From an uncultured Gammaproteobacteria bacterium (GTDB taxonomy: Bacteria > Patescibacteriota > Microgenomatia > UBA10105 > UBA927), in the NCBI GenBank assembly GCA_964596355.1, contig CAZQTD010000005.1, positions 1-63,114 on the forward strand: DNA of 63,114 nucleotides, written 5' to 3'. Shown here piece by piece: positions 5,616 through 23,586 of the stretch. The notes beneath the pieces were generated by a model that saw only the letters and a list, made by a program, of their open reading frames with translations, ran no database searches and was not told where the DNA came from. Position 1 is the first letter of the stretch. Each line of letters begins with the position of its first letter. Both the position numbers and the translations under genes were made by a program.

Positions 5616-5695
5616 CGTATAGAGAATAGGAATAGCGCATAGAGAATAGCGTATAGTTAGTATTACCTAAACGCTATTGACGAAACGCTATTCAA
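5616..5695. repeat. Heptamer-type degenerate repeats arranged as inverted blocks (AATAGCGT / ACGCTATT)
   Basis: AATAGCGT at ~5646 pairs with ACGCTATT at ~5671 and ~5685. Confidence 0.7.
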
Positions 5696-5702
5696 CCTGC
5701 CT

Positions 5703-7283
5703 ATGTGGCTACACTTTATACTTGAAAACATCCATTTTGCCATAAACTTGTTTGCGGCCCTCACGTTCTTTGCCGTGTTTTGGCTCTACATTGATGCGTG
5801 GGAGGAGCGCAAAAGCGCGCACATACTTGGGAAAATCGTCGGGTATCTCCTTCTTTCTCTTTCATTTCTCCTTTCCGGACTAGAAGTTGAGTCTACTATT
5901 GTGGCAGTGCCGATTTTTGGGGAAGCCATCCGTACGATGCTACTTTCGGGCGTGCGGATTCTGGCGTATCTTTTCCTTATTGCTGGCGTAGCAAGCGAAC
6001 CGCTCGAACCGCTTCCCACACGTCCCGCCAATACCGTCGCCGTCTTTCTTGGGATTACCGGATGATCCTTTATCCTTCACCCGATTGCCGCGTCGATCAT
6101 CGCGTTTTTATACCTTCGGCGGGCAACAGTCGGGCTTGAACATCATATCAAGCCGGTGGCGTTTGGATTTTTCCTTATTGCCCTGTCGGAGCTTGTTTCC
6201 ACTGCCGCGCTGTTTCGCGATACGGCGTGGGTATCGCTTTACCGATTGGTCAGTCCCTTTGGGATGTTTTGGATGGTGGAGCATGCGCTGTTGTGCGTGG
6301 GGATTATCATCATCAGCCGCTGGGTATTTGCGTATCTGTTTAAACAATTCCACACGCAGCTATTTATGATCATCACAACCATGATACTTGTCATTTTCCT
6401 TGTTACCACCGTATCATTTAGCGGACTTCTGGTAAAAAACGTTCAGGATGAAAGTTTGCGTCAGCTTGAAACCGATGTTTTGGTGCTTCGCTATTCGCTC
6501 GAAAGTAAAAAATCCCAGCTTGTTTCTGACGCGCAGATGATTTCACAAAATCAGGCAATCATCCAAGGCGTCACGCAACAGAATCGCATGGAATTGGCGA
6601 AGCTGGCAAGCGAGTATTTGTTGACAAAAAAACAAAGCACGCTCCTTGTGGTAAATGAATCCGGCCAACTTATCGCCCGCGGAGAAGACCGCGATCGTAT
6701 CGGAGAATCGCTCTCCGGCGATACGCTGGTTAAGCGTGCGCTTTTGGGAGAATCGGTTGCGTCTGTGGTGACGACGGAGGGGGTGGTGGCGCCGATGGTG
6801 AGCATCCGCGCGGCTGTTCCCATCCGGGGAGAAAACAATGCCGTCATCGGCGCCGTCATTGTTGGCGAGGCAGTGGACAGCGCGTATGTGGACGGGCTCA
6901 AGAAAGCCACCGGGCTTGACGCATCGATCTACGCGGATATGACCGTGAGCGCAACGACGTTCCTTGCGCCGGACGGCGCGTCCCGCATGGTCGGGATGAA
7001 GGAAAACTCTTCCCGCGTCAAAGACAGGGTACTGAAGGATACCATGCAGTACACCGGGTCTGTGCCGGTTTTGGGTACGCCGTACTTTGCGTCATTTTTG
7101 CCGCTTGCCGATGCGGACAACGTGCCAGTGGGGATGCTCTTTGTCGGCAGGCCGCAAGTACATGTCCTGGCTGCCGCCGGAAGATCCATTGAGCTGACGT
7201 TTCTGGTGACGTCACTACTCCTTGTTCTTTCGATAGTTCCGGCATTTATGATATCGACGTTTATCAGCAGCCAGTTGGAATAG
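5703..7283 (+). pseudogene. Multi-TM membrane protein with extracellular Cache-like domain, interrupted by in-frame TGA at 6063-6065
   Basis: ORFs 5703-6065 and 6156-7283 share a frame; reading through gives ...FLGITG*SFILHPIAASIIAFLYLRRATVGLEHHIKPVAFGFF... with no further stop. Confidence 0.75.
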
Positions 7284-7286
7284 CGC

Positions 7287-9616
7287 ATGAGTCTTCGGAC
7301 AAAAATTATTCTGTTCATCATCCTCTCTACTGTGGTTACCACGGTGGTGACATCCTTCATGCTTATTGTCATTATCCTTCGAGAATTTCAGGCGATTGAG
7401 CGCGAACAGGTGGTGCAGAATATCCAGCGCGTGCAGGAAGTAATCGCTGTGGATATAGAGCACCTAGATACCAAGTTAAGCGATTGGACGATGTGGGACG
7501 ATACGTATGAATTTATTCACAATCACAACTCGCGATACATCGAATCAAACCTTCAGGATCTGACGCTGGAGAATTTGAAAATTAATCTCATGGTGTTTCT
7601 GGACTCTGCCGGGCAGGTCGTATGGGAGCGCGCGTATGATGTGACGGCCAAACGGGCCGCCAGTATGCCGGAGGGGTTTCACGACAGTATCAAAACACCC
7701 ATGCGTTTTCCGGCCTATCTTCAGCCGACGATCATATACGCGGTATACTGGTATTTTCAAACACGGCATACCTTATCGCGGCTCGCCCCATCCTTCCTAC
7801 CGACGGCATCGGCGCGCCGCGCGGAACCATGATTATAGCGATGGAGTTTTCCGATGAGCTGTTGAAGCGGTATTCGGAAGTAACCAAGCTTGCCGTTTCT
7901 GCGTATCGCGCGGACGCACCCCGAGATGCCAACGAGCGGGACGCGCTTCATGCGCTTCAATCGGGCGAGCCGGTAGCGATGTGGTTTGCGTCACACGCCG
8001 CGGTTCGCGGGTACGCGCTTGTCCGCGATATTTTTGGGGAACCGGTACTGGTGGTTGGAGTAGATATGCCGCGCAGCGTCTACCAGCAGGGCATGCGTAC
8101 GATCCGATATCTGGGTATTGTGGGGGTTGCAAGCGGAGGAATGTTTATTATCCTCTTTATCATTATCCTTGAACGGTTGATGATTGCCCGGCTGATAGCC
8201 ATGCAGTCTGAAGTGAAAGCAATTGCTTCAAGCGGCGATATCTCCGCGCGATTGCCGAGTGATAGAGGGAATGATGAGCTTAGTCAGTTGACTGGCTCCA
8301 TAAATACCATGCTTGGGTCACTGGAAGAAGCACAGCACGCACTTACCAAAGAAAAAGCAACGCTGGATGTGTACTTAGACGTGGTCAATACGATGATTGT
8401 CGTTTTATCTCCTGATCAAACCATATTGCAGATTAATACAGTGGGACTGCATAAGCTTGGATATGAGGCAAACGATATTGTGGGTAAGTCCTGGAGAGAG
8501 GTTTGTGTGCCGGAAGGCGTGCGGGATCAGGTAAAGAGGGTATTTGATGCTCTCGTCAGCGGACGCCACCAGCTTGCAGAATACTATGAATATCCTATTT
8601 CAACGCGTGACGGACGCGAGCTTCTGGTGGCGTGGCACAATAGCGTGATTCGGGATGAACAGGGAAAGGTCGTTGCCACGGTTTCTTCCGGTGAAGATAT
8701 CACCGAGCGGAGAAAAGAAGATATTGCGCTTCGGGAAAGCGAAGAGCGATTCCGCATGATCGCCCAACAAACAGGGCAGGTCATGTATGATTACCATCTG
8801 GCAAGCGGCGCAATTGTCTGGGCAGGGGCAATTTCCGAAGTCATAGGGTATACGCCGGATGAATTTGCCTTCTTTGACATAAAAAAATGGGAAGAAAATA
8901 TCCATCCGCAGGACAGAGAAGAAGCATTGCGGCTCCTTGAAGAGGCTAGGAAACAAGTCACGAAATACCGCGCAATCTACCGTTTCCGCAGGAAAGACGG
9001 TACGTATTTTATCGCAGAAGATAACGGTGTATTTCTGCGCAATGACAAAGGTGAACCATACCGCATGTTAGGCGCGGTTGCCGACATTTCCAAACGGGTT
9101 GCGGCAGAATCCAAACTTCAGGAGAGTGAGCGCATCTACCGGTTTTTTATCGATAACTCGCACGAGCTCATTTTTATTTTGGATCCCCAAGGCATGATTC
9201 GATTTGTAAATCGCCACGTCATAGAAAGTTTGGGGTATAAAGAAGAAGAGCTTATTGGAAAGCCTTTTAGTGATTTCCTCATGCCGGAATCTGCCGCAAA
9301 AGTAGCAACATCGCTCGCGCTTAGATTTCAGAGCAAACCCCAGCCGGTCATGGAAGTTGGAATGAAGAGCAAAGCAGGTGATGTGTTGATTATTGAAATT
9401 GCAGAAGGGTCGGTGCTGGTGCATGAAAAGGGTGAACTTATCGGTGTTATGGTGAGCGGATATAACATCACGCAAAGAAAGAGGATGGAAGATGCCCTTC
9501 AGCGGAGAAATAAAGAGCTAAAGCACATAAACCAGCTTATGGTTGGAAGAGAACTAAAGATGATTCAGATAAAGCAGGAGCTTGAAGACCTCAAAAAGCG
9601 TCTTGCTTCACAGTGA
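7287..9616 (+). pseudogene. CHASE4-HAMP-3xPAS sensor with coiled-coil tail and no catalytic domain; frameshifted between ~7640 and ~7720
   Basis: CHASE4 'DWTMWDDTYEF' in frame 1; continuation 'DDHIRGILVFSNTAYLIAARPILPTDGIGAPRGTMII' is in the frame of ORF 7829-9616; HAMP 'DELSQLTGSINTML'; PAS/PAC 'DITERR','DISKR','NITQRK'. Confidence 0.75.
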
Positions 9617-9627
9617 TCCTGCGTGGG

Positions 9628-10416
9628 CTACGAATGTTCTGCTACGAAGGTATTGAATAGCTGGATCTGGAAAAAAAGGAAAAAACACCCCGCTGTCAGC
9701 CAAAACAGATCAGGAACACCTCCGTTTGCGTACGTTTCGTTTGTCGTTTGTATGGAAAAAAGCGAATCAGCAGTTATTTGAGACAAAAGCGCGATAATCA
9801 ATAAGAGCGATAATCCCTTGAGCTTTCCTCCGATATACCGCCAGAGCATGAATGTCAAGACGAGGAGAATGGCGTCTCCTAGAGGATGTAAGATATTAAA
9901 CAGTTTTGCTAAATCCGGCAGGCCGCTTGAAACGTCAGGTCTATAGATAACCCCAAACAAGAGGACGCACGATAGAGCAAGAATTCCCACCGATTCGGCG
10001 AGGTTTTGCCACCGGAGTCGCGATTGAACGATTGAAAGAAGCTGCCATACTCCGGCAATCATGCAGGGGATCAAAAGAAGGAAAAATACATCGGCAACAG
10101 ACGGATATGGCACTTCGACGTGCAAGATCATGTTGTAATAAATAACCCAGATTATCGAACCAACGCCCCATGAGCCAATACCGAGTCCAAACAACAGAAG
10201 AGCCTTCCCCACGGCGCTCGATGTTCCTGTTGAGGGTAGGGCATAGAGGCCGACGTAAAGCGATGCGAGGAATACTAGTTGATAAAACAGTTCAAATACG
10301 TTGACGTATATCGTTTCATGAAAGACGAATTGCAGTCCAAGCCACCACAGAAAGGCCGCGATGCTTACAGCAATCGCTGGTAACAACGGTATGCGGCGGA
10401 TGGCGCGCTGGTTCAT
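9628..10416 (-). CDS. 7-8 TM membrane protein (sensor-type membrane domain, no output domain)
   Basis: Hydrophobic helices; 'PYPSVADVFFLL', 'YPxGD'-like 'HPLGDAILL', 'DLFW' resemble membrane sensor modules of GGDEF/HK proteins. Confidence 0.6.
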   Translation of the reverse strand: MNQRAIRRIPLLPAIAVSIAAFLWWLGLQFVFHETIYVNVFELFYQLVFLASLYVGLYALPSTGTSSAVGKALLLFGLGIGSWGVGSIIWVIYYNMILHVEVPYPSVADVFFLLLIPCMIAGVWQLLSIVQSRLRWQNLAESVGILALSCVLLFGVIYRPDVSSGLPDLAKLFNILHPLGDAILLVLTFMLWRYIGGKLKGLSLLLIIALLSQITADSLFSIQTTNETYANGGVPDLFWLTAGCFFLFFQIQLFNTFVAEHS

Positions 10417-10495
10417 ATACGGACGCGTTCTTAGAATTGTGTTCTTTCTATTGTATACTCATACGTAGAGAGAGAATCAAGTAGGAACCGTTTGT

Positions 10496-12529
10496 ATGAC
10501 TGCCCGATCGTTACTGCCAGCTGTATTTGGTCGATTGTTTCGGCATGAAAAAATAGCAGAAGACGGCATCATCGCGTTTCTCCAAGAGCAGATTGTGAGA
10601 AAAGACGCAGTGCGCGAAGCATTGCGGCAGATTGCAAAAGCACAGCGATTGGAGCCAACCGAGCGAATTTTTGCATACATTCCGCTGTACGCTTCGCTGG
10701 AGCAGTTTATTTGCGCCAATAAACTGCCGGTGGTGAACCGCGAGTTTACGAAGGACGAGCTTCGCCGTGCTGTCTGTGCGGCTGTGCCGGTAACTACCAT
10801 GAGCGTCTATTTTCAGGTCCTGTTTCGGGACTCTGTGCAAAAAGCGCTCATCCTCTTTTGGATTATTTCACACGCGTTGCGAGAAACCTACAGCAAGCTT
10901 TTGGGGAGTGATCGCCTCGCAGACATGTTTCGACGGACAACCGATGGAACGCCGCTTGATGGCGTATTTGCCGGCATGACGCTTCACAGCGATGCGGTAT
11001 CCGCGCAGCAAGACGTCGAGGCAATTTTGCCTGTCCTTCAGAAGCTCATCACAATGATGTATGAGGAGATTCGCGGCGGGTTCGGCAATCAGCTCGCTGA
11101 TTCACTGATTGCTTCTTCTGTTGCCCGGATTCGGAATCTGTATGACTATGACACGCAACTTCTTTGTTTTGACATTGTTCCCGAAGCGTATCTTCAGAAA
11201 GAGCGCATATCCATGCTGTCGCGCAAAGACCTTGAGGAGAAAATTGCCTTGGCGACGCAGAAAGAGCGTGATCATGCCGAAAAGCAGGCTCGTCTGGCGA
11301 AAGAACTTCACGATCAGCTCGTTTTGATGGATTAGAAGAATAAACAACTCGTCGAAACACAGCAGGCTATGGTGAATCTTTTGGAAGACGCGCGCGCTCT
11401 GGAAGAAGCGCTGAAGAAAGAAAAAGAAAGTGTCGAGCGTAAAGTTATCGAACGGACGCGCCAGCTCCATGATCAGCAAGCGAGGCTTCTGGCTTCCATA
11501 AACGCGCTCGCGTGGGGGTATGTGATGACCGATACGACCGGAAGAGTGCTTTTGACCAACAACCGCGTTGATCGCATGTTTGGTCCGATTGAAGGCGCGT
11601 GGACGCTTGACGTGTTGCAAGAAAAGGTAGGGAAAAGCATAAGTGTTACCGATACCTTCCACCGGTGTTTAGAAAAGAAGGAGAGCATTGACAATTCCGA
11701 TGTTCCGATAGGGAATCGGTTTTTTCGGGTGATGTTCGTTCCGGTTTTCACTGAAGGGGGAAAGCGGGAAATTATTGGAGAGCTTGTATTGTTTGAAGAC
11801 ATAACCGAGTGGAAAATCCTGGAACGATCGCGGGAAGAATTTTTTTCTATTGCAAGCCATGAACTGCGCACCCCTCTTACGGCAATACGAGGAAATACAT
11901 CGATGATTTTGGAATTTTTTCAAGATGAGCTGAAAAACCAAGAACTTAAAGAGATGGTTGATGATATTCATGATTCGAGCATCCGGCTTATCAAAATAGT
12001 GAACGACTTTTTGGACATGAGCCGGCTTGAGCAGGGGAAAATTGAGTTTAAAAAGGAACCCCTTGATATTACTGCACTAATCCGCGATGTTCTCAAGGAA
12101 TATCAAGCAACAGGATCGCAACGCAAGCTCGCGTTGACCTTTGAAGAACCCAACGAGCCCATCCTTCCGGTGATTGCGGACAAAGATCGCCTCAAGCAGG
12201 TACTTATCAATCTCATCGGAAATGCCTTGAAGTTCACCGAGCAGGGCGGCGTGAGGGTTCGCACGTATATGCATAACGGGTTTGTGCGGATTATCGTTGA
12301 AGATACGGGTAAAGGAATTCCGTATGAAAATCAGGTGCTTCTGTTTCGCAAATTCCAGCAAGCAGGTGACAGCATCTACGCACGTGACACCACGCAAGGC
12401 ACCGGACTGGGCCTCTATATTTCTCGGCTTCTTGTGGAAGGCATGGGGGGGACGATTGGTTTAGAGTATTCACGACCAGGCAAAGGATCTGCGTTTGCCT
12501 TTTCGCTACCTCTTGCAAACAGACAGTAA
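10496..12529 (+). pseudogene. PAS-HisKA-HATPase histidine kinase with uncharacterised N-terminal domain, interrupted by in-frame TAG at 11333-11335
   Basis: ORFs 10496-11335 and 11369-12529 share a frame: ...QLVLMD*KNKQLVETQQAMVNLLED...; H-box SHELRTPL, N-box NLIGNALKFT, G1 DTGKGI, G2 GTGLGL. Confidence 0.85.
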
Positions 12530-12559
12530 TGATTCTATTATGAAGGAGAGGAGCTTGGT

Positions 12560-12958
12560 ATGGCTAAATTGATTTTGGTCATCGAAGACGATCCGTTGAT
12601 GGCGCGGATGTACCAGAAGATCTTTAAATTTGAAAAATACGATGTGGCGCTTGCCGGTAACGGCGAAGAGGGCTTGGAAAAGGCACGGAAATGTAATCCT
12701 AGTCTCATTCTCCTGGACATCATGATGCCTAAAATGAACGGGTTGCAGGTATTGGAGAAGCTCAAAGACGATCTTGATACAAAGAAAATTCCCGTCGTCA
12801 TGCTGACGAACCTCGCCGGCGAAAAAGATGCGGAAAAAGCGCTCATCAAAGGCGCGGTCAAATATATCGTCAAAAGCCAACACGAGCCCAAAGAAGTCGT
12901 CAAAATCGTCAAAGAAATCATCGCCGCTCACTCAAGAGATGATGTGCCGGAGAGCTAG
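12560..12958 (+). CDS. Single-domain response regulator (CheY-like receiver)
   Basis: IEDD, LILLDIMMPKMNG, MLTN, KYIVK receiver motifs. Confidence 0.92.
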   Translation: MAKLILVIEDDPLMARMYQKIFKFEKYDVALAGNGEEGLEKARKCNPSLILLDIMMPKMNGLQVLEKLKDDLDTKKIPVVMLTNLAGEKDAEKALIKGAVKYIVKSQHEPKEVVKIVKEIIAAHSRDDVPES

Positions 12959-12964
12959 GAGAAT

Positions 12965-13036
12965 TTCTAATTTCTAATTGACCTAAATAAGCACCAATGA
13001 CTAAATTGGGACATTGGGATTTTTTAGAAATTAGAA
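12965..13036. repeat. Heptamer repeat footprint with perfect 13-bp inverted repeat TTCTAATTTCTAA / TTAGAAATTAGAA
   Basis: 12965-12977 is the reverse complement of 13024-13036; inner CCAATG/CATTGG also pair. Confidence 0.8.
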
Positions 13037-13060
13037 CGTAGGTCAGTGAGGGTAATTGTT

Positions 13061-13738
13061 GTGAAGCCTGCCGCAAAGAAAAAATCAAAAGTCGCCAAGA
13101 AACCGGTAGAACAACCGGCGCCGGCTGTTGAAACGCCCCAGACAGAAACACATACACACGCGGAAGCCTCTGTTCATGTAGAACCTCCTCAATCTGAAGC
13201 TCCCCAAGAAAACGCGCCCAATTCCAAAGAAGAAGAGAATCTGGAGGCAGCGCTGGAGGAGGCGCCGGCGGAAGAAGCGCCAATTGCCAAAACGAACAAA
13301 CTGCTTTTCACTGTCGGTACGATCGTTGCCACGGCGCTGGTCACGTCGTCAATCGGAATATTTCTTGTCTATTTATCACATCCCACGCAGGTGACGCGTC
13401 AAGAGACAGCGCCGGTGGAAGAAGTCTCTCCGTCAGCAACCCCTGTTCCGGCGCTTGCGAAATCTGACATAACGCTTGAGGTTCTCAACGGCTCCGGCGT
13501 GAAAGGGAGCGCAGGCAAAGCGGCAAGCAAACTTTTGGATTTGGGATACACCGTGGTTGGGACGGGAAACGCAGACGCGCGCTACGATCGAAGCGAGGTA
13601 TTTGTCGCAGCTGCGTTGGGAGAACAGGGGAGAACCATGCTTCTGGGCGATCTCGCAAAAGAATTTTCCGTTAGCTCCGTCTCCGGCGTCCTCGAAGATT
13701 CAACGGTTTCGGCGCGTCTCATCATCGGGAAAGAGTAA
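13061..13738 (+). CDS. Single-pass membrane protein with acidic/Pro-rich N-terminus and LytR C-terminal domain
   Basis: 'LEVLNGSGVKGSAGKAASKL...GNAD...VSARLIIGKE' LytR_C motif; GTG start inferred. Confidence 0.8.
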   Translation: MKPAAKKKSKVAKKPVEQPAPAVETPQTETHTHAEASVHVEPPQSEAPQENAPNSKEEENLEAALEEAPAEEAPIAKTNKLLFTVGTIVATALVTSSIGIFLVYLSHPTQVTRQETAPVEEVSPSATPVPALAKSDITLEVLNGSGVKGSAGKAASKLLDLGYTVVGTGNADARYDRSEVFVAAALGEQGRTMLLGDLAKEFSVSSVSGVLEDSTVSARLIIGKE

Positions 13739-13812
13739 TTTGGCAGGACAGCGGCAGACGGCGAGAAAGTCCCCATAGCGGACAGCTTGTAACTTCAAAA
13801 AAACTCGGTATA

Positions 13813-14562
13813 ATGGGTGATATGCTGGAAAACCCTCGGACAGAGAAACTTTCCCTTTTTTTCAGAAGATATAGCATTCCATTGGGAATCCTCGCGGTTT
13901 TGGTTGCCGCAGTTCCGTCGGTGTACTTTTTTACCAAATATCAGGCCGCCCAAAAGAGATTGACAAACCCCACGCAGTATGCGCAGGAGGAGGTCAAAGC
14001 GATGGTTGCGGAAGTTGGCAAACTCATGCAGCTTCCCGGGGATGAAGTCCCCACGCTTGCGACGGTCAACGATAAAGAGAAACTTCAAAATCAGCCATTT
14101 TTTACGTTCGCGGAAAACGGCGACAAAGTCCTTATCTACACGACGGCGAAAAAGGCGATTTTGTACCGGCCAAGCACGCATAAAATCATCGACGTTGCGC
14201 CGATAACCATCGGCGGCAGCGCAACGGAGTCGGCAAGCGTCGCCGGAGCGGCTACGTCTGTGAGCCCCACGCCTGCATCTTACACGTTCGTCCTCCTCAA
14301 CGGGAGCGGCGTCGTGGGTATTACCAAACGCTATGAAGCGGTGCTGAAGGAAAAAGTACCCAATGCCGAAGTCATTGATCGCGATAACGCCAAAAAGACA
14401 AATTACGACAAAACGATAGTGATTGACAGCACGGGCAAGCGAGCAAGTGAAGCAAAAGCGATTGCGGAAGCGCTCGGCATTACCGTCTCCAGCCTTCCTG
14501 CCGGCGAAGCCACAGCAAGCGGCGACTTCGTCATCATCATCGGAGATGATAAAGCCAAATAG
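13813..14562 (+). CDS. Single-pass membrane protein with LytR C-terminal domain
   Basis: 'LLNGSGVVGITKRY...DFVIIIGDD' LytR_C; 'LPGDEVPTLATV' segment. Confidence 0.8.
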   Translation: MGDMLENPRTEKLSLFFRRYSIPLGILAVLVAAVPSVYFFTKYQAAQKRLTNPTQYAQEEVKAMVAEVGKLMQLPGDEVPTLATVNDKEKLQNQPFFTFAENGDKVLIYTTAKKAILYRPSTHKIIDVAPITIGGSATESASVAGAATSVSPTPASYTFVLLNGSGVVGITKRYEAVLKEKVPNAEVIDRDNAKKTNYDKTIVIDSTGKRASEAKAIAEALGITVSSLPAGEATASGDFVIIIGDDKAK

Positions 14563-14699
14563 CCGTCATCAGCACATTGGTTTTTCCAGTGAGAACAGGT
14601 ATAATACGACCATACGGATGTGTTTTTACGAGTTTCGCCTTATGAACGTCACGACATCCGAGGATCCTTGAGACACGATTGTTCTTTGAGCCCAAAGCG

Positions 14700-14719
14700 T
14701 AGCTTTGTCGACAAAGCTA
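14700..14719. repeat. Perfect 20-bp palindrome TAGCTTTGTCGACAAAGCTA
   Basis: Self-complementary by direct reading. Confidence 0.85.
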
Positions 14720-14748
14720 AGCTTTTATACACATTCGTTGGTATTAGT

Positions 14749-15069
14749 ATGTCTTTCCACGACGATAAACTTTGGCAGCAGGCGTATGTGGCGGTTTTGG
14801 ACATTTTGGAAGCTACAGACGCGCTTGATCAGGCGGATATTGTTTCGGAGGTACGCAGGTACGCGATGATGGTGCTGACTGTTACGTCTGACGCCGTTTC
14901 CCGCCGAGACAGGAGAGAGCGCGACGCTAAACTCCGAGACGCATACTTTAGGACGGTTGCGCTCCGAAGTCTTCTTTCGGTCCTGTGGGCCAAAGAGATC
15001 TTAAGCGATGATGCGTTCGGCAAACTCGACAGCGCCCTCGAAGGACTTTCCGCCGCATTGCCCGCGTAA
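14749..15069 (+). CDS. Divergent four-helix-bundle protein
   Basis: 'FHDDKLWQQAY' resembles the F.DL.VWQKA N-terminus; ~106 aa, all helical. Confidence 0.55.
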   Translation: MSFHDDKLWQQAYVAVLDILEATDALDQADIVSEVRRYAMMVLTVTSDAVSRRDRRERDAKLRDAYFRTVALRSLLSVLWAKEILSDDAFGKLDSALEGLSAALPA

Positions 15070-15233
15070 ACAGTGTTCAAATTCTCCATCTCCTCCGTTC
15101 TTCTGCCTTAAAGGGCTTTCCGCCACCTGAACAGGGTTGTTTTTTATCGTTTTGCCGCATTTATTCCTCGATTGTTCTTGACAGCGTTGCGCATGCGAAG
15201 AAAACATTCTCCCACATTCCTCCCCCCGCCTCC

Positions 15234-15279
15234 TAATTAATATATTTGACTACCACGTGGTAGTCAAATATATTAATTA
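15234..15279. repeat. Perfect 46-bp palindrome (23-bp arms, no loop)
   Basis: TAATTAATATATTTGACTACCAC|GTGGTAGTCAAATATATTAATTA. Confidence 0.92.
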
Positions 15280-15303
15280 ATCCAGCGGTTTTTTGGTTCC
15301 CTC

Positions 15304-15332
15304 TTGAATGTCGTATATTGACTTGTTAGAGT
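15304..15332 (+). promoter_or_regulatory. Putative sigma70 promoter of rpiB operon (TTGAAT-17-TAGAGT)
   Basis: Hexamers at 15304-15309 and 15327-15332 with 17-nt spacer. Confidence 0.45.
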
Positions 15333-15340
15333 GAGAATAT

Positions 15341-15445
15341 GACTCACGGGGAAACTCCTGCGTGCTTCCGAGATCGGAGCGGGTCCCGCGTCGAGGGATC
15401 CTCGCGTCGCAAGGGCGCGTCTACGGCGCAGGCAGTAGAGAGGTA
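15341..15445 (+). ncRNA. Candidate structured 5' leader RNA upstream of rpiB (unassigned family)
   Basis: GC-rich island with several hairpins and a long-range CCTGCG/CGCAGG helix; I do not recognise a known family. Confidence 0.4.
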
Positions 15446-15450
15446 ATGGT

Positions 15451-15894
15451 ATGACTGTATATATAGGCGCTGATCACCGGGGGTTTCATCTAAAGGAGAA
15501 GCTTAAAGCATGGTTGCTAGAGCAGAAGCATGAAGTATTAGACTGCGGCAATTCATACCACGATCCGGATGATGATTTTCCTGATTTTTCTTTTGCCGTT
15601 TCCGATCGTGTGATCAAGGACCCCGGGAGCCGCGGCATCGTCATTTGCGGCAGCGGCGGCGGTGTGACGATAGCGGCAAATAAAGTGAAAGGCATCCGGT
15701 GCGCTGCTGCGGTACACGTAGCAGACGTCAAGCACAACAGGCAGAGCAACGATATCAACGTTCTTGCGCTTTCTGCCGATCACACCGATGCCGACGAAGC
15801 CAAAGAACTTGTGCGGGCTTTTCTAACCACCGAGTTTGTTGGGGAAGATCGCCACGTGCGCCGGCTCAACAAAATTGCGATGCGGGAGGGATAG
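15451..15894 (+). CDS. rpiB: Ribose-5-phosphate isomerase B
   Basis: IGADHRG, ICGSGGG, ANKVKGIR, RHVRR. Confidence 0.95.
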   Translation: MTVYIGADHRGFHLKEKLKAWLLEQKHEVLDCGNSYHDPDDDFPDFSFAVSDRVIKDPGSRGIVICGSGGGVTIAANKVKGIRCAAAVHVADVKHNRQSNDINVLALSADHTDADEAKELVRAFLTTEFVGEDRHVRRLNKIAMREG

Positions 15895-15971
15895 ATTCCA
15901 TTATTCCATTGCTCCGTTGTCATATTATAGTGCAGTATGCCAAGGAAGCTATGGAGCAATAAGTTGGATAC

Positions 15972-16625
15972 ATGATTGAAGTAATCCCCGGTATATTAGA
16001 AAACGATTGGAATGAAATAGAGCGCAAAATTACGCTGGTTGCTCCATTTGTCGAGTGCGTGCAGATAGACGTGGCAGACAATACGTTGGTTCCCAACACC
16101 ACATTTCTGGATGTTGCCAAATTCGAAGCCTTGATAAATTCCTGCTTAAGCATAAAAAAATCAAAACTCTTGCTCGAGGCGCATTTGATGGTTGCCAATC
16201 CTGAAACGTACATCAAGCCGCTTGCTGACGCCGGCTTTAAGCGGCTGATTGCCCATGTTGAAGCGCATGACCCGCGGCTGTTTTTGGATCAAGCACAGTA
16301 CGAACACGTAGAAGTGGGAATTGCCATCGACGGACCCACGGAATTTGAACACGTGGAGCCGTTTTTAGGAGAAGTAGACTGCGTGCTGGTCATGACGATT
16401 GAGGCAGGCTTTAGCGGCCAGCCGTTTCTGATCGAGACGCTTGAAAAAATCAAAACCATCCGAACCAACATCCCCGATCTTCCCATAGAAGTCGATGGCG
16501 GTATCAATGATCAAACCGCGCGTCTCGTCATTGAGGCAGGAGCCACCAGGCTTGTATCGACAAGCTACCTCTTTAAGGATCCAGAAAGAATCGCTGCAGC
16601 TATCGCCAGGCTTAAGGGAGAATAA
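15972..16625 (+). CDS. rpe: Ribulose-phosphate 3-epimerase
   Basis: QIDVAD, EAHLMV, VMTIEAGFSGQ, EVDGGIN. Confidence 0.93.
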   Translation: MIEVIPGILENDWNEIERKITLVAPFVECVQIDVADNTLVPNTTFLDVAKFEALINSCLSIKKSKLLLEAHLMVANPETYIKPLADAGFKRLIAHVEAHDPRLFLDQAQYEHVEVGIAIDGPTEFEHVEPFLGEVDCVLVMTIEAGFSGQPFLIETLEKIKTIRTNIPDLPIEVDGGINDQTARLVIEAGATRLVSTSYLFKDPERIAAAIARLKGE

Positions 16626-16742
16626 AGACAGTAGTACGCCGATTGGCTATGATGTGATTGTCGGCATTGATATTTTTGATATCCATCGATGTATAAACGG
16701 TGGGGCTGGACGCACGGCATCCAATCGTTTATCATTCATAAT

Positions 16743-18650
16743 ATGAGCGATAGTAAAACGCTTGCGCTTCTTGCCCGCCGCATACGTTACGACATCCTCA
16801 CCATGACCACGCGCGCAGGAAGCGGGCACCCGACCTCCTCGTTATCCGCTGTTGAGCTTATGACCGTTCTGTTTTTTAACTATCTTCGCTACGATGTAAC
16901 CAATCCCACAAATCCCGGCAACGACCGCGTAATTTTTAGCAAAGGCCACGCGTCGCCGCTTTACTACGCGCTCTACGCGGCAGCAGGTGCGCTCACGCAA
17001 AAAGATTTAGAAGGCTACCGCACGTTTGACAGCACGCTCGAAGGCCATCCTACGGCGCGGTTCACATACACAGAAGCTGCTACCGGCTCACTCGGGCAGG
17101 GTCTTTCGATCGGATTGGGGGAAGCATTAGCGCTTCGTCTGCAGAGTGGTAACGCTCCTCCCCGCGTGTTTGTCCTTGCCGGAGACGGCGAGCTTGCAGA
17201 AGGCGCGGTGTGGGAGGCGGTTGCTGCCGCGAGCTTTCGAAAGGTCAACAATCTCTTTCTTCTGTGTGATATTAACCGTCTGGGTCAGTCGGATCCGACA
17301 ATGTACGAGTACGACCTTGGAATGTACAAGAAACGCTTCGAAGCGTTTGGGTGGCGCGCGGTGATTGTTGAGGATGGCAATGATATTGAAGCAATAGATC
17401 GAGCATACATCGATACCTTTAAAGGTCCGACCCTTCAAGGGGGGTTGACAGTAATTCTGGCGAAAACGAAAAAAGGTGCTGGGGTTTCGTTTTTGGAAAA
17501 TGCCGACAGTTGGCATGGGAAGCCGTTGTCAAAAGAAGAACTTACGAAGGCCGTGGCGGAGTTGGGGGACATTGACCTAACGCGTGTTGGAACCGTTCAA
17601 AAACCAGAGAATATTCGCGGGTTATCATTCGCGGGTGATCATACCGACAAAACCTTTTCGCATACGCCGCCAAAAGCGAACTATGACCCAGCGAAACCTG
17701 TCGCAACCCGCAAGGCATTCGGAAATGCGCTCAAGCGTTTGGGGGCGAGTAATCCGCGTCTGATTGTTATCGATGGTGATGTCAAAAATTCTACCTACAC
17801 GGAATATTTTGGCAAGGAATTTCCGGAGCGATTTTTTGAGCTGTTTATCGCGGAGCAAAACATGGCGGGTGTTGCTACCGGACTTTCCGCCCGCGGATTT
17901 CGCCCGGTGGTTTCTTCGTTTGCGTGTTTTTTGACGCGCGCTGCGGACCAATTTCGCATGGCGTCATTTTCCGCAGTCAACATGATTGTCAACGGATCTC
18001 ACGCGGGCGTATCTATCGGCGCAGACGGACCGTCGCAGATGGGACTTGAGGATCTTGCGATATTTCGTGCGATTCATGGGTCGACCGTGCTGTATCCTTC
18101 GGATGCCTATTGCACGGAAGCGCTCGTTGAAGAGGCGCTTAAAGCTGGCGGCATCGTTTACATCAGAACGACGCGCCCCGAAACACCGATCCTCTACGAC
18201 GCAAAAGAGTCGTTTCCCATCGGCGGCAGTAAAGTATTTGAGCAGTATAACAAGACGGCAATGAAACAATGCGTGGCAACCGTCGTCGCAGCGGGAATAA
18301 CACTTCATGAATCTCTTAAAGCGCAAAAGGAACTGGCATCCCAAGGTATGTATGTCCGCGTCATCGATTGTTATTCCATCAAGCCTATAGATCAAAAAAC
18401 ATTGCACGCCGCTGCCAACGATTCCAAGGCTATCATTGTCGTTGAAGACCATTACCCCGAAGGAGGATTGGGAGAAGCTGTCCAATCTGCACTCTTTGCC
18501 AGCAACAGGGCTCGACCCTGTCGAGTGGTGCATCTGGCTGTCACCAAAACGCCCCGAAGCGGCAAGTCGGGCGAGCTTTTAGCATATGAAGGAATTGATG
18601 CGCAAGCGATCATCAAAACAGTCCGTTCACTGATTTCTATCCATGAGTAA
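16743..18650 (+). CDS. tkt: Transketolase
   Basis: GSGHPTSSLS, SKGHA, GSLGQG, GDGELAEG, IAEQNM, EDH. Confidence 0.95.
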   Translation: MSDSKTLALLARRIRYDILTMTTRAGSGHPTSSLSAVELMTVLFFNYLRYDVTNPTNPGNDRVIFSKGHASPLYYALYAAAGALTQKDLEGYRTFDSTLEGHPTARFTYTEAATGSLGQGLSIGLGEALALRLQSGNAPPRVFVLAGDGELAEGAVWEAVAAASFRKVNNLFLLCDINRLGQSDPTMYEYDLGMYKKRFEAFGWRAVIVEDGNDIEAIDRAYIDTFKGPTLQGGLTVILAKTKKGAGVSFLENADSWHGKPLSKEELTKAVAELGDIDLTRVGTVQKPENIRGLSFAGDHTDKTFSHTPPKANYDPAKPVATRKAFGNALKRLGASNPRLIVIDGDVKNSTYTEYFGKEFPERFFELFIAEQNMAGVATGLSARGFRPVVSSFACFLTRAADQFRMASFSAVNMIVNGSHAGVSIGADGPSQMGLEDLAIFRAIHGSTVLYPSDAYCTEALVEEALKAGGIVYIRTTRPETPILYDAKESFPIGGSKVFEQYNKTAMKQCVATVVAAGITLHESLKAQKELASQGMYVRVIDCYSIKPIDQKTLHAAANDSKAIIVVEDHYPEGGLGEAVQSALFASNRARPCRVVHLAVTKTPRSGKSGELLAYEGIDAQAIIKTVRSLISIHE

Positions 18651-19161
18651 AGCGGGATACGAATATCTTATCACCTATCATTATGCAGAAGAGATATTCG
18701 ATCTCACTGCACAGTTTGCCGACCGATTTCTCGCTGGTCGAGAGCACGTGCGAACCCGTGAGCAAATGGTCCAGGCAGCAAGATCTGGTAAGCAAAACAT
18801 CGTTGAAGGGTACATGGAGAAAAGCACAAAAGGTTATATTAAGCTTTTGGATATAGCCCGCGCGTCGTTGGAAGAGCTTTTAGAAGACTATCGGGATTTT
18901 GCCAGAAGAAAGGGAATTGAGCTCAGGGATAAGTGGGATAAGAGAGAGAACGGGGAGAAGGGGAAATACCACATTCTCCTTCTTGACCCTCTTCACCCAC
19001 TTGACCCCTTTATCCCGGTGAATTATCTGGTAAACCTTATACGACGGACAACATATTTGCTTGATCGTCAAATTTCAGCGCTTGAGCATAAATTTGTGAC
19101 GGAAGGCGAATATACAGAAAAACTATTTCAAAAACGGTTATCATATAGGAGGGGTGCATGA
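18643..19161 (+). CDS. Four-helix-bundle protein with suffix domain
   Basis: 'GYEYL...RTREQMVQAARSGKQNIVEG...ARASLEELLEDYRDF...LLDRQI..LE.KF..EG' family pattern; overlaps tkt stop and tal start. Confidence 0.88.
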   Translation: MSKAGYEYLITYHYAEEIFDLTAQFADRFLAGREHVRTREQMVQAARSGKQNIVEGYMEKSTKGYIKLLDIARASLEELLEDYRDFARRKGIELRDKWDKRENGEKGKYHILLLDPLHPLDPFIPVNYLVNLIRRTTYLLDRQISALEHKFVTEGEYTEKLFQKRLSYRRGA

Positions 19162-20033
19162 ATTTTCCATCTCATATCTACATCGATGGCGGGGATCCGG
19201 AGGAAACCAGACAAGCCGACAGCATGCTTAAAAAAGCCGGCTACCACGGCCTGGATGGCCAGACGACCAACCCGACGCTCATCGCAAAGCGATTCGCAAA
19301 CTCAAAATCCAACATTCAAAACTCAAAGCAAGACAAAATTTCAGAAAAAGAAGCATTCTCTTTTTACAAACAAACCGTTCAGGAGATCAGCAGGATCATC
19401 CCCAAAGGCAACATTTCCATTCAGGTCATCGGCGATCCCGCTACGTTGACCGCCAACGAGATGATTTCGCAGGCGCGCGACCGCATCACCTGGATTCCCA
19501 ATGGGATCATCAAGCTTCCGTGCACAAAGGCTGGCCTTGAGGCTGCGGAAGTATTTTGTCAAGAAGGCCCAATAAACATTACGCTCAACTTTACGCAGGA
19601 GCAGGCGGCGGCAGTGTATGCGGCTACCAAGACGCATAGCTACGACGTGTATATTTCTCCCTTCGTCGGCAGGCTTGATGACCGCGGAGAAAACGGCATG
19701 GACGTGGTAGCAAACATTCTTGAGATGTACCAACTGGGCGACGGACACGTGCGTACGATCACTGCAAGCGTGCGGAACATGGGCCACCTGCTGTACGCTC
19801 TGTTTCTCAAAAGCCCGGTTATTACAATCCCTTTTAACGTATTTAAACAGTGGGCCGATGCGGGATTTCCGGTTCCTGATAAAGAGCATATCTACGACCC
19901 GCCGGGTTTAACCGACATCCCGTACCGCGAGCTGACGCTCGATAAAAACTGGACGGAGTATGACCTGCGCCATGACCTCACCGACGCCGGAGTCAAGAGA
20001 TTTTGGGAGGATTGGAAGGGAATTGTAGCGTGA
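19158..20033 (+). CDS. tal: Transaldolase family protein
   Basis: GQTTNPTLI, IIKLP, NITLNF, ISPFVGRLDD, ASVR. Confidence 0.93.
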   Translation: MNFPSHIYIDGGDPEETRQADSMLKKAGYHGLDGQTTNPTLIAKRFANSKSNIQNSKQDKISEKEAFSFYKQTVQEISRIIPKGNISIQVIGDPATLTANEMISQARDRITWIPNGIIKLPCTKAGLEAAEVFCQEGPINITLNFTQEQAAAVYAATKTHSYDVYISPFVGRLDDRGENGMDVVANILEMYQLGDGHVRTITASVRNMGHLLYALFLKSPVITIPFNVFKQWADAGFPVPDKEHIYDPPGLTDIPYRELTLDKNWTEYDLRHDLTDAGVKRFWEDWKGIVA

Positions 20034-20035
20034 GT

Positions 20036-21418
20036 ATGCCGGAGCCCGCTACAAATCACGAGCAGCGTAAACCATATTCGGTCTATGCGCCTCTAGGGAT
20101 AAAAGAAGGAGCAATCGTTGATCCACGAAGAGTAGAGAGTGTTAAACCATTACTTCAGGCAACTGGCGTGCTTGATCTTGATCTATGGATTTCGGGCTTA
20201 TCCAACCGCTTGCCTCTCACTGATGAAATGACGCTTCAACAAGAGCTTTCTACGCTTCAGGCGGAAAATCAGCTGGCGATGCAACTTCTTGATGCGATGC
20301 GAGGCGTGTATATGATTGAGCATGTGCTTGAGACTCCAGCCTCTGAGGTATCAGCTCCTGGACTGTCGTTTTTGGCAGAAGAAGCAAATCGTCTTATTCC
20401 TAAACCAGAACAGTCAGGAATTGATAGCGAAGGGTCCGCGTGGTTTGCCGAGGTTGCCGACGGAACCATCGTGTTTCGTTTCGGGGCGGACCTCCCTAAG
20501 GAGCGTGCGGGCATCACCTTGGAGCAACTGTACCAAGCAGAACGAGAGAATTTAGACAAATGTATACGGCTCCTTGCGCAGGAAATCACCATAGATCCAA
20601 ATATGTATTTTGGAGATACCGGCGGTTTACAAGTTAGCGGTAGACCTGACGTGGCTATTTTATTGAAGCGCTTTAGCACCGTTTAGCACGATCTACGAGC
20701 GAAGTTGAGTTTATACATATCAGGATTTGACCTACTGGATGATGATTCTGATGAAAAGGATGCCGTATTGGACATCTTACGAAAAGTTATGGAGGAATCA
20801 AGTACTACGGTGAAAAACGTACGAACTCTGCTTGAATCGCCGCGCGAGCCCGAACGCGTATCCGTTGGCACGCTTATTGATACGCTCCGCGACATATTTT
20901 CAGTACTTACCGATGAAGAGTATATCGTTTCTATTGATGAAACCGCGCGCATCATAGGAGAAAACGGCGTCTTCATCGGGGAACCGGTGCCGATTCGAGA
21001 TTTGTTTGTCTTGTTTTCCGATAGTCTTCTGCCATCCTTGGGTGATAACGTACGAAGTAATACCCGAAAGACATATGCGGCCCGCGATGTGATGGATCCG
21101 AACAGGAAAAGCCGTTTCAGAGAGCTTCGTGTGTCATGGCGGCTCGATAAGAAAGCTCAAACAATTCAAATGGTAATCGAAGATGACGGGGTGGGATTTT
21201 CTCCTGATATTATCGCTGCCGGTAGATTTGTTGAAGCTTTGACTTCATGGAATACTGAAAAAACACGAGTAACAGGTACAGGTTTTGGCATGGCAGCATT
21301 GGCCGATCAGGCAGGAGACTATAAAGCGCGCATCATTCCAACAAACCGTACGCACAGGGAGGGAGATGTAGAAATTATTGACGGGGCAACACTTATCGTT
21401 GAATTCAAATATACATAA
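20036..21418 (+). pseudogene. Histidine kinase (HisKA-like + HATPase_c) interrupted by in-frame TAG at 20684-20686
   Basis: ORFs 20003-20686 and 20705-21418 share a frame: ...KRFSTV*HDLRAKLSLYISGFDLL (H-box-like); EDDGVGF and GTGFGM ATPase boxes. Confidence 0.78.
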
Positions 21419-21421
21419 CGT

Positions 21422-22393
21422 ATGTACCACCACGTTGTCGCCGGCGGGACGTTTGACGCGCTTCACCGCGGCCACCGAGAGTTTTTGAGCCGCGCGTTTG
21501 CGTCAGGGGAGCGTGTGACGATCGGGCTCACCAGTGATGCGTATGTACGGCGATTCAAGCAACAAACAACGATTCGATCGTTTGGAGAGCGCAAAAAAAC
21601 GCTTGTTGATTGGTGTAAAACGCAGGGAGTAGAAAACCGTGTAAACATCGTGGCGATTGATAACATCTACGGCCCTGCGATATTGGGAGACTTTGACGCG
21701 ATTGTGGCAACGAGTGAAACACGCGCCAATGCGATTGACATTAACACGGTTCGCAAGGAGCGGGGACTTCCGGAACTTGCTATTATTGACGTCCCCATGG
21801 TTCCAGCAGAAGATGACAAACCCATTTCCAGTACCAGAGTGCGAAACGGCGAAATTGATCGGGAAGGACACTTAATTCTCCCTGATGCGCTGCGGCCCGA
21901 GCTCCAAAAGCCGCTCGGCAAACTTTTAATTGGAGATGCCATAGGTCGATCGATTGACATGCACAAACGAGGCATTACCGTTTCCGTAGGCGATGTAGCG
22001 ACAGAAGCGCTTCTTAATGCGCAGGTGACGCCAACGCTTGCAGTTATTGATTTTCAAGTGCAGCGAAAACCGTATGTTGCGCTTAAAGATCGGTTAATCA
22101 ACAATCAGCCGTTTGAACGCATTTCCTCCGGCCCCGGGCACATTTCCAAGCAAGCGCTTGACTTTTTTGAGACGTGGGGCAAAGAAATCGGACAAAACCC
22201 AAAGAAACAAACGATCCTAGTTGTCGATGGCGAAGAAGACCTGCTGACGCTTTTGGCTATTGGGCATGCGCCGATGGGAGCGGTTGTGTATTATGGACAA
22301 CCGCCGATTACGTGCCCCGCGGGACTAGTGGAGGTAGACGTCACGCCTGAAAAGAAGCGAGAAATTGCATCCCTGTTGTTAAAATTTCTTTAG
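21422..22393 (+). CDS. coaD: Archaeal/eukaryotic-type phosphopantetheine adenylyltransferase fused to DUF359 (GTP-dependent dephospho-CoA kinase-like)
   Basis: GGTFDALHRGH, GLTSD, ISSTRVR; then 'LRPELQKPLG', VGDV, VDGEEDLL, VYYGQP. Confidence 0.88.
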   Translation: MYHHVVAGGTFDALHRGHREFLSRAFASGERVTIGLTSDAYVRRFKQQTTIRSFGERKKTLVDWCKTQGVENRVNIVAIDNIYGPAILGDFDAIVATSETRANAIDINTVRKERGLPELAIIDVPMVPAEDDKPISSTRVRNGEIDREGHLILPDALRPELQKPLGKLLIGDAIGRSIDMHKRGITVSVGDVATEALLNAQVTPTLAVIDFQVQRKPYVALKDRLINNQPFERISSGPGHISKQALDFFETWGKEIGQNPKKQTILVVDGEEDLLTLLAIGHAPMGAVVYYGQPPITCPAGLVEVDVTPEKKREIASLLLKFL

Positions 22394-22396
22394 CCC

Positions 22397-22435
22397 GTCC
22401 ATGTTACTTACGTTTTAAAACATAGTAACATGGAC
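22397..22435. repeat. Near-perfect 39-bp palindrome between coaD and galT
   Basis: GTCCATGTTACT (22397-22408) / AGTAACATGGAC (22424-22435) with inner GTTTTAAAAC. Confidence 0.85.
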
Positions 22436-22487
22436 AAGCAGGGTGGAAAGTTGGTAGGCTGTATATAGGGTACAGAGGAGGTGTGCG

Positions 22488-23360
22488 GTGGCAAAATACG
22501 TACCGGACGTCAAAACCCAGCGGTGGGTCGTGATTGCGCCCGTGAGAACAACACGACCCGAAGATTTCAGTCGGGACTCAAGCATCCCTGCATTGAGAAG
22601 CGAAGCGCCGAAGTGTCCATTCTGCCCCGGCAACGAAGCACTGACTCCGCCGGAAGTCTACCGCATCGGCCCGGGAGAAAAAGACAAACCCGGGTGGCGT
22701 GTGCGCGTGGTTCCCAATAAATATCCCATTACCGATATCCATGAAGTGTTTATCCATAGCGCCAGTCATGATGATAATGTAGAGAGACTGCCTCTTGAAC
22801 ACGTTGCAACGATTCTTTCTTGCTACCGCGATCGGTATCGCGCGCACGCCACTGACGGACAGGTTCTTATTTTTTGCAATCACGGCTTTCATGCAGGGGC
22901 GTCACTGGCGCACCCGCACTCGCAGCTTGTGGTAGTGCCAAAGCAGATCAATCTGGATTCTCTGTCGCGCGAACCGATCAATAACGTGGTAGAAGAACAA
23001 GCGCATTTTGTAACGTATTGCCCTGATTTTTCCCAATGGCCGTATGAGGTATGGATTGCGCCCAAAGAAGAAGGGCACAAATTTGATGACATACAGGATG
23101 GGGAAGTAAAAGATTTAGCAGTAGTTTTTCAAAAGGCGCTGAAGAAAATCGAACGGGTGTACAAAAAATCTCCCATCAAGCCAAAAGACCGTACGGATGA
23201 TGCTTTTGTCTATAACTATTACATCTCGCACAGCAATAACTGGTTTATCCGCATTGTTCCTCGGTTTATTCACCGTGCCGGATTTGAACTGGGGACCGGA
23301 CTTAATGTGAATATCGTCGATCCTGCAGAAGCGGCGAGAGAACTGCGAGATATTTCGTGA
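22488..23360 (+). CDS. galT: Galactose-1-phosphate uridylyltransferase (HIT superfamily)
   Basis: CPFCPGNE, VRVVPNKYP, GASLAHPHSQ. Confidence 0.9.
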   Translation: MAKYVPDVKTQRWVVIAPVRTTRPEDFSRDSSIPALRSEAPKCPFCPGNEALTPPEVYRIGPGEKDKPGWRVRVVPNKYPITDIHEVFIHSASHDDNVERLPLEHVATILSCYRDRYRAHATDGQVLIFCNHGFHAGASLAHPHSQLVVVPKQINLDSLSREPINNVVEEQAHFVTYCPDFSQWPYEVWIAPKEEGHKFDDIQDGEVKDLAVVFQKALKKIERVYKKSPIKPKDRTDDAFVYNYYISHSNNWFIRIVPRFIHRAGFELGTGLNVNIVDPAEAARELRDIS

Positions 23361-23385
23361 GGCAATTAGCGAACAAAAGATGAAT

Positions 23386-23586
23386 CTACATTTGCCCTTT
23401 CTGTTGCAATCCCAACAGCCACAAAACAGCTTCTTTTTTGTAGCGCCTGTCGCCGCGTGAGTTGATGCGGATGGCAGGCAGTTTGCCGCGTTTGCCCCAG
23501 CGTTTGATTGTCAAGGGGCTGACGCGCAGTATTTTGGCAACCTCTCGAACGGTAAGTAAATCTGGCCAGTCATCTCCGAGTGACAT
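23386..23586 (-). CDS. Small excisionase-like helix-turn-helix DNA-binding protein
   Basis: 'LLTVREVAKILRVSPLTIKRWGKRGKLPAIRINSRGDRRY'; TTGACA-17-TACTGT upstream. Confidence 0.88.
   Translation of the reverse strand: MSLGDDWPDLLTVREVAKILRVSPLTIKRWGKRGKLPAIRINSRGDRRYKKEAVLWLLGLQQKGQM

Follow-up and report, generated by a model that had tools for sequence, protein, structure and literature searches.

What does it mean when the sensing genes of a bacterium are each interrupted once, while the housekeeping genes around them look intact? The question is raised by the DNA presented above, the entire 63,114-bp contig of a metagenome-assembled genome (MAG) at NCBI. We refer to this whole stretch as the window, and it is the sole stretch of the genome that we analysed. 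It represents one wild population of an uncultured bacterium of the Patescibacteria, or candidate phyla radiation (CPR), sampled from thermal-swamp sediment (hot spring); by the names of its homologs it may lie near Microgenomates/WWE3. An earlier note on this DNA had pointed out four broken signalling genes, namely a Cache membrane sensor, a CHASE4-PAS sensor and two histidine kinases, and had attributed the pattern either to a recent selective switch-off of environmental sensing or to conditional readthrough or phase variation. Our analysis indicates, with a probability of roughly 70%, that the four lesions are recent loss-of-function alleles or early pseudogenes and reflect the ordinary decay of a sensory pathway.

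Three of the lesions are nonsense substitutions and one is a single-base frame change. Translation bears out the earlier observation that each gene otherwise reads cleanly, with one break only. For comparison, a relative is represented by two contigs of one JGI metagenome (3300081892), both syntenic with the window. Contig L006 carries a redoxin-domain gene, an intact ortholog of the Cache gene of 530 amino acids (aa), two PAS-coil proteins, a 469-aa kinase, two receivers and LytR_C genes; contig L002 carries transaldolase, an intact ortholog of the second kinase gene, PPAT/DUF359, GalT, MerR, EamA, DUF6390 and NiFe hydrogenase. Each of the four genes corresponds to an uninterrupted single protein in its homologs, and since these homologs and the syntenic orthologs are single uninterrupted genes, the lesions are derived in the lineage of the window.

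The first gene (g1, 5703..7283, forward strand) encodes in 526 codons a membrane sensor of the double-Cache type (dCache_3/sCache_3) with a multi-transmembrane (TM) N-terminus, a C-terminal TM helix and no output domain; the Pfam matches are dCache_3 at 1.2e-17 and sCache_3_3 at 2e-20. Its translation contains the in-frame TGA that had been reported at 6063, which occupies 6063-6065 in a variable loop between TM helices. A full HMMER scan recovered no fewer than 150 cluster representatives, 520-540 aa long, that align over residues 1-525. The L006 ortholog is intact, 60% identical and colinear across the TGA site, where it has a Leu beside a 3-residue indel. Homologs carry Leu, Ile, Phe, Ser or Gly at this position, and the loop is too variable to point to one ancestral codon. 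The lesion leaves an N-terminal fragment of 120 aa, a product that would be cut ahead of the Cache domain, and the next in-frame ATG, GTG or TTG is GTG 6156.

About 12 of the 150 family representatives are only 376-430 aa long (among them P0330, P0377, P0359, P0350, P0355, P0382, P0390, P0324 and P0354). Their first Met lies directly past the loop that bears the TGA in the window, or at the point where the GTG-6156 fragment starts; they could be natural short forms or likewise broken genes of other metagenomes. Also associated with g1 is the motif AATAGCG, present in five copies at 5611-5692 in the 87-bp gap 5' of the start codon, direct at 5611, 5631 and 5645 and inverted at 5672 and 5686, with a further AATAGCGCA at 7279-7287 across the g1 stop and the start of the next gene. 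The 9-mer is observed five times against about one expected. The array looks like a set of predicted operator sites for a regulator and has no conserved counterpart ahead of the L006 ortholog. We rejected it as a phase-variation tract, as it combines direct and inverted copies, forms no simple repeat and is not conserved in the relative.

The second gene (g2, 7287..9616, forward strand) encodes, once repaired, a 777-aa sensor with the arrangement TM-CHASE4-TM-HAMP-3xPAS-coiled coil (Pfam: CHASE4 at 4.7e-36, HAMP and three PAS domains). Two overlapping frames make up the gene as it stands, an open reading frame (ORF) at 7287..7832 and another that stays open over 7640-9616. The frameshift that had been placed at about 7640-7720 is borne out in the assembled consensus, and homology refines its site to about 7700-7730, at the upper end of that range: a net -1 frame change within CHASE4, with one base missing or two added, that leads to a premature TGA at 7830-7832. 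The repaired protein aligns gap-free to eight homologs, the closest about 33% identical, and a single CHASE4 match spans the junction without a break, from residue 53 to residue 206 (profile positions 2-138 of 140). Translation as it stands would cut the product within CHASE4. The downstream ORF has a possible restart at ATG 7829, which overlaps the premature stop as ATGA.

The repaired g2 protein has no kinase domain. Loss of a kinase from g2 by truncation was considered and rejected: kinase-less CHASE4-PAS homologs (P0124, P0125 and P0143) share its C-terminal coil MVGRELKMxxLKxE and end in it, so the missing kinase domain is native to the family. The extended ending MVGRELKMxxLKxELxxLK, found in g2 at 9480-9616, also occurs in PAS-only proteins, including two in L006. 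Such a shared coil may serve as a docking element for a separate kinase, and it hints that in these bacteria sensors and kinase work as a module of several proteins. Between g2 and the next gene lies an orphan ORF of 262 aa on the opposite strand (9628-10416), which has no Pfam or NCBIfam match and is absent from the syntenic L006 locus.

The third gene (HK1, 10496..12529, forward strand) has 677 codons and encodes an N-terminal domain of 279 aa with unassigned function (no Pfam or NCBIfam match), followed by a coiled coil, a PAS-like domain, HisKA (3.4e-20, 72.3 bits) and HATPase_c (4.1e-25, 88.8 bits), the last two both above the Pfam cut-offs. With the H-box His and the N, G1, F and G2 boxes all present, and with the invariant SHELRTPL and DTGxG...GTGLGL motifs that it shares with 15 homologs, it is a sensor histidine kinase. 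At least 16 proteins from Patescibacteria, each a full-length single chain of 633-709 aa, align with 91-99% of the repaired HK1. The translated gene is split by the TAG that had been noted at 11333; the codon, at 11333-11335, lies in frame in the coiled-coil linker and aligns with Gln in P0003 and P0005 and with Ser in P0004. Downstream of it, the ORF at 11369..12529 (386 aa) still encodes the whole of a cytoplasmic kinase module of PnpS/PhoR-like type, matching positions 30-390 of 390 of the NCBIfam PnpS profile, at a score of 223 bits that is far below the 400-bit equivalog cut-off. The syntenic relative has a kinase of 469 aa that shares 70% identity with this core and lacks the N-terminal domain of HK1. 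HK1 would thus merely be uncoupled from its N-terminal domain, and it may still work as a stand-alone kinase core. Directly following, at 12560..12958 on the forward strand, is an intact 399-nt gene for a stand-alone receiver-domain response regulator (Pfam Response_reg, 9.1e-26), which is 83% identical to a response regulator of the relative and is the probable partner of HK1.

The N-terminal domain of HK1 is conserved in many Patescibacteria kinases. The nearest relatives of HK1, P0003-P0005 (70% identical), have lost it entirely, a stretch of about 250 aa (window 10496-11332 compared with L006 9929-10200). The same domain has been uncoupled from the kinase in two lineages, by two different routes.

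The fourth gene (HK2, 20036..21418, forward strand) encodes in 460 codons a rare kinase-like protein with an N-domain of unassigned function, an H-box-like helix and GHKL-type G1/G2 boxes. Its translation confirms a TAG in frame at 20684-20686, one codon ahead of the His in the H-box-like sequence FSTV*HDLRAKL (the asterisk is the stop). A single homolog, P0001, was found among 5.8 billion clusters; this protein of 480 aa is intact, 44% identical and carries Gln at the site (FSTIQHDIRAK), so the lesion is likely a CAG to TAG change. Neither fragment keeps both the His and the ATPase domain, and HK2, cut one codon ahead of its presumed phospho-acceptor, would be dead as a kinase. What speaks for the histidine kinase named in the earlier note is the H-box-like motif, the G1/G2 boxes and a low-confidence structural model; the Pfam HATPase_c score of 20.8 bits lies under the 26.4-bit cut-off, and hence we call the protein only kinase-like. 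There was no match to Pfam HisKA, nor any in NCBIfam or in a sequence search of the PDB, and an hhalign comparison with the HK1 family gave 72% probability over the G1-G2 region only. An AlphaFold2 model from a two-sequence alignment shows a helical hairpin and then an alpha/beta domain only, at low confidence (predicted local distance difference test, pLDDT, 43).

Synteny with L002 is conserved around HK2, and among 12 neighbouring ortholog pairs HK2 is the least conserved, with 44% identity against 53-98%. Because its identity is the lowest among these pairs, HK2 was apparently weakly constrained before its break. The TAG belongs to the second unit of a direct repeat of 8 nt, TTTAGCAC-CG-TTTAGCAC (20672-20689), and this unit became identical to the first by the C-to-T change that we infer (TTCAGCAC to TTTAGCAC). 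The lesion could be a templated (quasi-repeat) mutation, or the match a coincidence.

How strong is the skew toward sensing? The broken genes are four of the five two-component sensing genes on the contig, with the receiver as the intact fifth. We surveyed about 55 further ORFs of at least 100 aa by Pfam, ORF inspection and ortholog colinearity, and inspected every adjacent or overlapping ORF pair that might be fragments of one gene. None of these ORFs is interrupted, and no other protein among them is split into neighbouring pieces, which agrees with the earlier count of roughly 60 other genes free of breaks. For at least 12 non-signalling genes, L002 and L006 have colinear orthologs. Four candidate pairs were rejected as fragments: the same-frame neighbours 60058-60615 and 60628-61164 are PAP2 and SpoU genes; 39195/40363 are cohesin-domain and dockerin-like genes with their own signal peptides; 53887-54441 and 54309-56342 encode a membrane protein and PBP2; and 13046 and 13813 are two LytR_C paralogs that are present in the relative too.

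The five two-component genes make up 7,727 of 56,388 coding bases (13.7%), and by coding length the probability that all four lesions fall in them is 3.5e-4; Fisher's test on four of five against none of about 55 genes gives p = 1e-5. By our own arithmetic, p is about 1.4e-4 when the PP2C, MerR and PaaX-like regulators are also counted as signalling. If g1, g2, HK1 and the receiver form one module, the four lesions may be just two independent events (module and HK2), for which our arithmetic gives a p of about 0.02. The claim of a non-random skew toward sensory genes is therefore upheld, and it is weaker if the module counts as one event.

The explanation that we favour starts from this module. 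The two sensors g1 (Cache) and g2 (CHASE4-PAS) would form, together with the soluble kinase HK1 and the receiver, one conserved gene module, which is kept in the relative with a Cache protein, PAS proteins, a histidine kinase and response regulators (L006). If the module was no longer needed, or if its loss was advantageous, selection would have been relaxed on all of its parts; after a first hit the remaining genes would drift neutrally. Each large gene of the module would then have picked up one disabling hit, with the small receiver gene simply not yet hit. HK2, which lies 8 kb off and is the fastest-evolving gene of its neighbourhood, would have been lost likewise. From the sequences we infer a non-functional product for HK2, g1 and g2, and consider this doubtful for HK1. 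Together, these steps probably describe reductive evolution of signalling at an early stage rather than a regulatory device.

The age of the lesions fits this course of events. For each family we took the columns that are at least 80% conserved and compared the protein of the window with intact members. In g1, 4 of 55 such columns deviate, against a range of 1-8 among the 30 nearest intact proteins; in HK1 the corresponding numbers are 9 of 33 for the N-terminal domain (intact range 1-12) and 11 of 148 for the kinase part (intact range 4-31). As changes at family-conserved columns are not in excess, the lesions are not old and a long decay is ruled out, with the qualification that the test has low power at about 1% divergence. 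This divergence is what three neutral nonsense hits in 7.3 kb imply by our own estimate, in which about 4% of random coding substitutions create stops. Synonymous sites are saturated in comparison with the only relative (protein identity 44-83%). Among about 15 billion public proteins there is none with at least 90% identity to any fragment or neighbour, and exact-sequence and 90%-cluster look-ups show all fragments and neighbouring proteins as singletons known only from the NCBI MAG and from Logan. No closer relative emerged from a scan of GTDB representatives with the HK2 alignment, which returned one spurious Prosthecobacter match, and a scan of JGI metagenomes for one gave no matches.

Several points weigh against ordinary decay. 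Neutral decay and selected loss may both be compatible with the data. One lesion in each of four genes is a mildly non-random pattern, with a probability that we estimate at about 0.09 for equal-sized targets, and it could hint at selected inactivation or at retained function of the fragments. For g1 and HK1, broken need not equal non-functional, because the core of HK1 is complete and short forms of the g1 family exist. The population may also be polymorphic, with the lesions as majority and not as fixed alleles. Finally, the basis is one 63-kb contig and not a genome-wide rate of pseudogenes. One variant reads the hits as adaptive knock-outs that struck nearly all of the two-component repertoire of a wild CPR population at almost the same time; it is a less far-reaching idea than a conditional switch, and a more likely one.

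Among the alternatives, functional gene fission survives best, although we consider it unlikely. Some or all of the pieces would still work as separate polypeptides, most clearly in HK1, where translation would re-initiate at ATG 11369 and yield the 386-aa ORF that matches almost the whole PnpS profile. P0003-P0005, among them the kinase of the syntenic L006 locus, lack the N-terminal domain, and yet the kinase is retained together with two response regulators. For g2, the ATGA overlap of its fragments is an arrangement typical of translational coupling, and for g1 the short family members start directly past the variable loop. HK2 is beyond such a rescue, its phospho-acceptor His being in neither a usable N-terminal fragment nor the fragment that starts at TTG 20705; a restart of g1 at GTG 6156 loses the conserved LYLRRATxGLExHxKP motif; and a restart of g2 proceeds without TM1 and two thirds of CHASE4. 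There is no Shine-Dalgarno-like motif at any of the restart codons, in a genome that uses such motifs inconsistently. Even in HK1, the 11 codons from the TAG to ATG 11369 are in frame and alignable, which indicates a very recent split rather than a settled pair of genes.

Less probable still is that the lesions are assembly or consensus errors, minority alleles or products of chimeric strain paths, and that the dominant genome is intact. The source study worked on thermal-swamp sediment with Illumina NextSeq reads and a MEGAHIT co-assembly, and the contig stems from this short-read co-assembly of nine libraries prepared by Nextera XT from 1 ng of DNA input (PMC8027834), a setting in which such problems might arise. 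A second assembly is available in the Logan contigs of the single Illumina run SRR10095374, which were assembled independently. These are 100% identical to the window over 88-10458, 10487-13315, 16057-21037 and 21034-30088 and cover all four sites, the lesions of g1 and g2 in L003, that of HK1 in L001 and that of HK2 in L005. The Logan contigs break near 10458/10487 and at about 21035, which could reflect strain variation, but two assemblers, one of them on a single library, agree exactly at all four sites. The longest homopolymer near any lesion has 4 nt, the only one at the g2 frame change being TTTT at 7706, and homopolymers of 7-8 nt elsewhere in the window lie inside open ORFs. A consensus error is unlikely, given Illumina data, two identical assemblies, three substitutions among the four lesions and a frame change outside long homopolymers. 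Errors are moreover not expected to cluster in one gene class, and none of the four proteins has an intact allele among about 15 billion public proteins, Logan assemblies included.

The remaining alternative is programmed or conditional expression, in which stop suppression (TAG as Gln, readthrough of TGA), frameshifting or phase variation would switch the sensors. Some Patescibacteria lineages recode UGA, and TAG-A and TAG-C, the contexts that follow the TAGs of the window, are weak termination contexts in E. coli. Both TAG sites align with Gln in their closest homologs, as a TAG-to-Gln suppressor predicts; the change from CAG is, however, the commonest mutational route to TAG. All three stop codons terminate genes here, with 24 TGA, 21 TAA and 18 TAG at the ends of ORFs of at least 100 aa, and orthologs of the upstream redoxin gene and of g1 end at the same TAG codons (5613-5615 and 7281-7283). 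Backup stops are not enriched after the TAG-terminated genes. In-frame stops inside genes number only three in about 56 kb of coding sequence, which does not match a reassigned stop codon.

Similarly, specific devices are missing from the window. Its four tRNAs (Trp-CCA, Thr-GGT, Tyr-GTA and Thr-TGT) include no suppressor. At the Rfam gathering threshold only tRNAs were matched and no selenocysteine insertion sequence (SECIS); with no Cys in homologs at the loop position either, the TGA of g1 does not behave as a selenocysteine codon. No tandem or simple repeat and no invertible structure as in a phase-variable locus occurs at any lesion, and there is no X XXY YYZ slippery heptamer in frame within the overlap 7640-7832. 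The homologs of g2 are single-frame, which does not fit a programmed -1 frameshift. As the lesions are of three kinds, three separate rescue mechanisms would be needed. The idea of conditional readthrough or phase variation put forward in the earlier note is thus not borne out, in view of normal terminators and the lack of a suppressor tRNA, repeat or slippery site in the window, and we regard it as very improbable. The same low standing belongs to its corollary, that a suppressor tRNA or readthrough factor encoded by the genome, a phage or a host would reactivate a silenced sensory network.

Apart from the sensing genes, the window holds several features worth recording. Two genes encode '23S rRNA intervening-sequence protein'/four-helix-bundle proteins (14620-15069 and 18643-19161); the latter has an extra 4helix_suffix domain and sits between transketolase and transaldolase, with an overlap of a few bases with both. 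A PaaX_M/Cas2-like regulator gene at 30157-30945 lies between rplA and rplJ and so breaks up the rplKAJL cluster in its usual form; the relative has the homolog of this regulator elsewhere, beside the LytR_C genes (L006 13063-13857). Ribosomal protein L1 (31405-32307, reverse strand) is 300 aa long; its match to the Pfam model of 198 positions falls into two parts, as if some 70 aa had been inserted. In methionyl-tRNA formyltransferase (48570-49667, reverse strand), the N and C domains are likewise set apart by about 90 additional residues. Two adjacent secreted proteins are encoded at 39195-41310 (reverse strand), one that carries a cohesin domain and is anchored by a C-terminal TM helix, the other ending in the dockerin-like motif DYNGCINVRD; by these domains they could form a cohesin-dockerin pair at the cell surface. 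Genes for the large (429 aa) and small subunits of a NiFe hydrogenase (26445-28345, reverse strand) adjoin rplL, an arrangement that is kept in L002.

What would the decay of these sensors mean beyond this contig? For Patescibacteria, a repertoire of only about five two-component genes per genome has been reported (PMC7137472), so the contig may hold most of that of this organism, and the low count fits a continuing loss. If our interpretation is right, the contig shows reductive evolution in Patescibacteria while it is under way, with a conserved sensing module and a second kinase-like gene lost by point mutations, and it gives a concrete example for the reported scarcity of two-component systems in the superphylum, next to intact housekeeping neighbours. 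There is also a practical side: the four genes are stored as eight fragments, each a separate 'protein' in public protein collections, entries that would inflate counts of sensor genes and mislead surveys of domain architecture. The finding opens no new mechanism.

The single components and the overall pattern can be placed among known systems. HK1 resembles the PAS-HisKA-HATPase_c kinases of the PhoR/PnpS type in its last 386 aa, which contain all kinase motifs, and in its adjacent receiver gene; unlike them it has an extra N-terminal domain found in Patescibacteria homologs, and with its score under the cut-off it is a relative rather than a member. Interrupted frames are also known from contingency loci and from programmed frameshifts of the prfB and dnaX type. 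The frames interrupted here are likewise reversible in principle, but no simple repeat, invertible segment or slippery site goes with them, and homologs do not share the interruption. In code 25, UGA is read as Gly in Gracilibacteria/Absconditabacteria, and in code 15 of some phages TAG is read as Gln. The window shares with them an in-frame TGA and in-frame TAGs within conserved genes, at sites that for TAG align to Gln; it differs in having just three such codons in about 56 kb, with all stops terminating normally there and in orthologs.

Loss-of-function alleles of sensor kinases and regulators such as agrC, lasR and rpoS sweep or segregate in natural and clinical populations. The lesions described here are like them in being point nonsense or frameshift changes in sensors, in touching several genes of one network and in showing no further decay, and unlike them in that neither parallelism across populations nor a fitness benefit is evident. 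Early-stage pseudogenes of reductive evolution are familiar from the recently host-restricted Mycobacterium leprae, Shigella and Sodalis. Our case concerns, in contrast, an uncultured free-living or episymbiotic CPR population known from one 63-kb contig. It has in common with these pseudogenes the single lesions in otherwise intact dispensable genes, the preferential loss of sensory functions and the untouched housekeeping neighbours.

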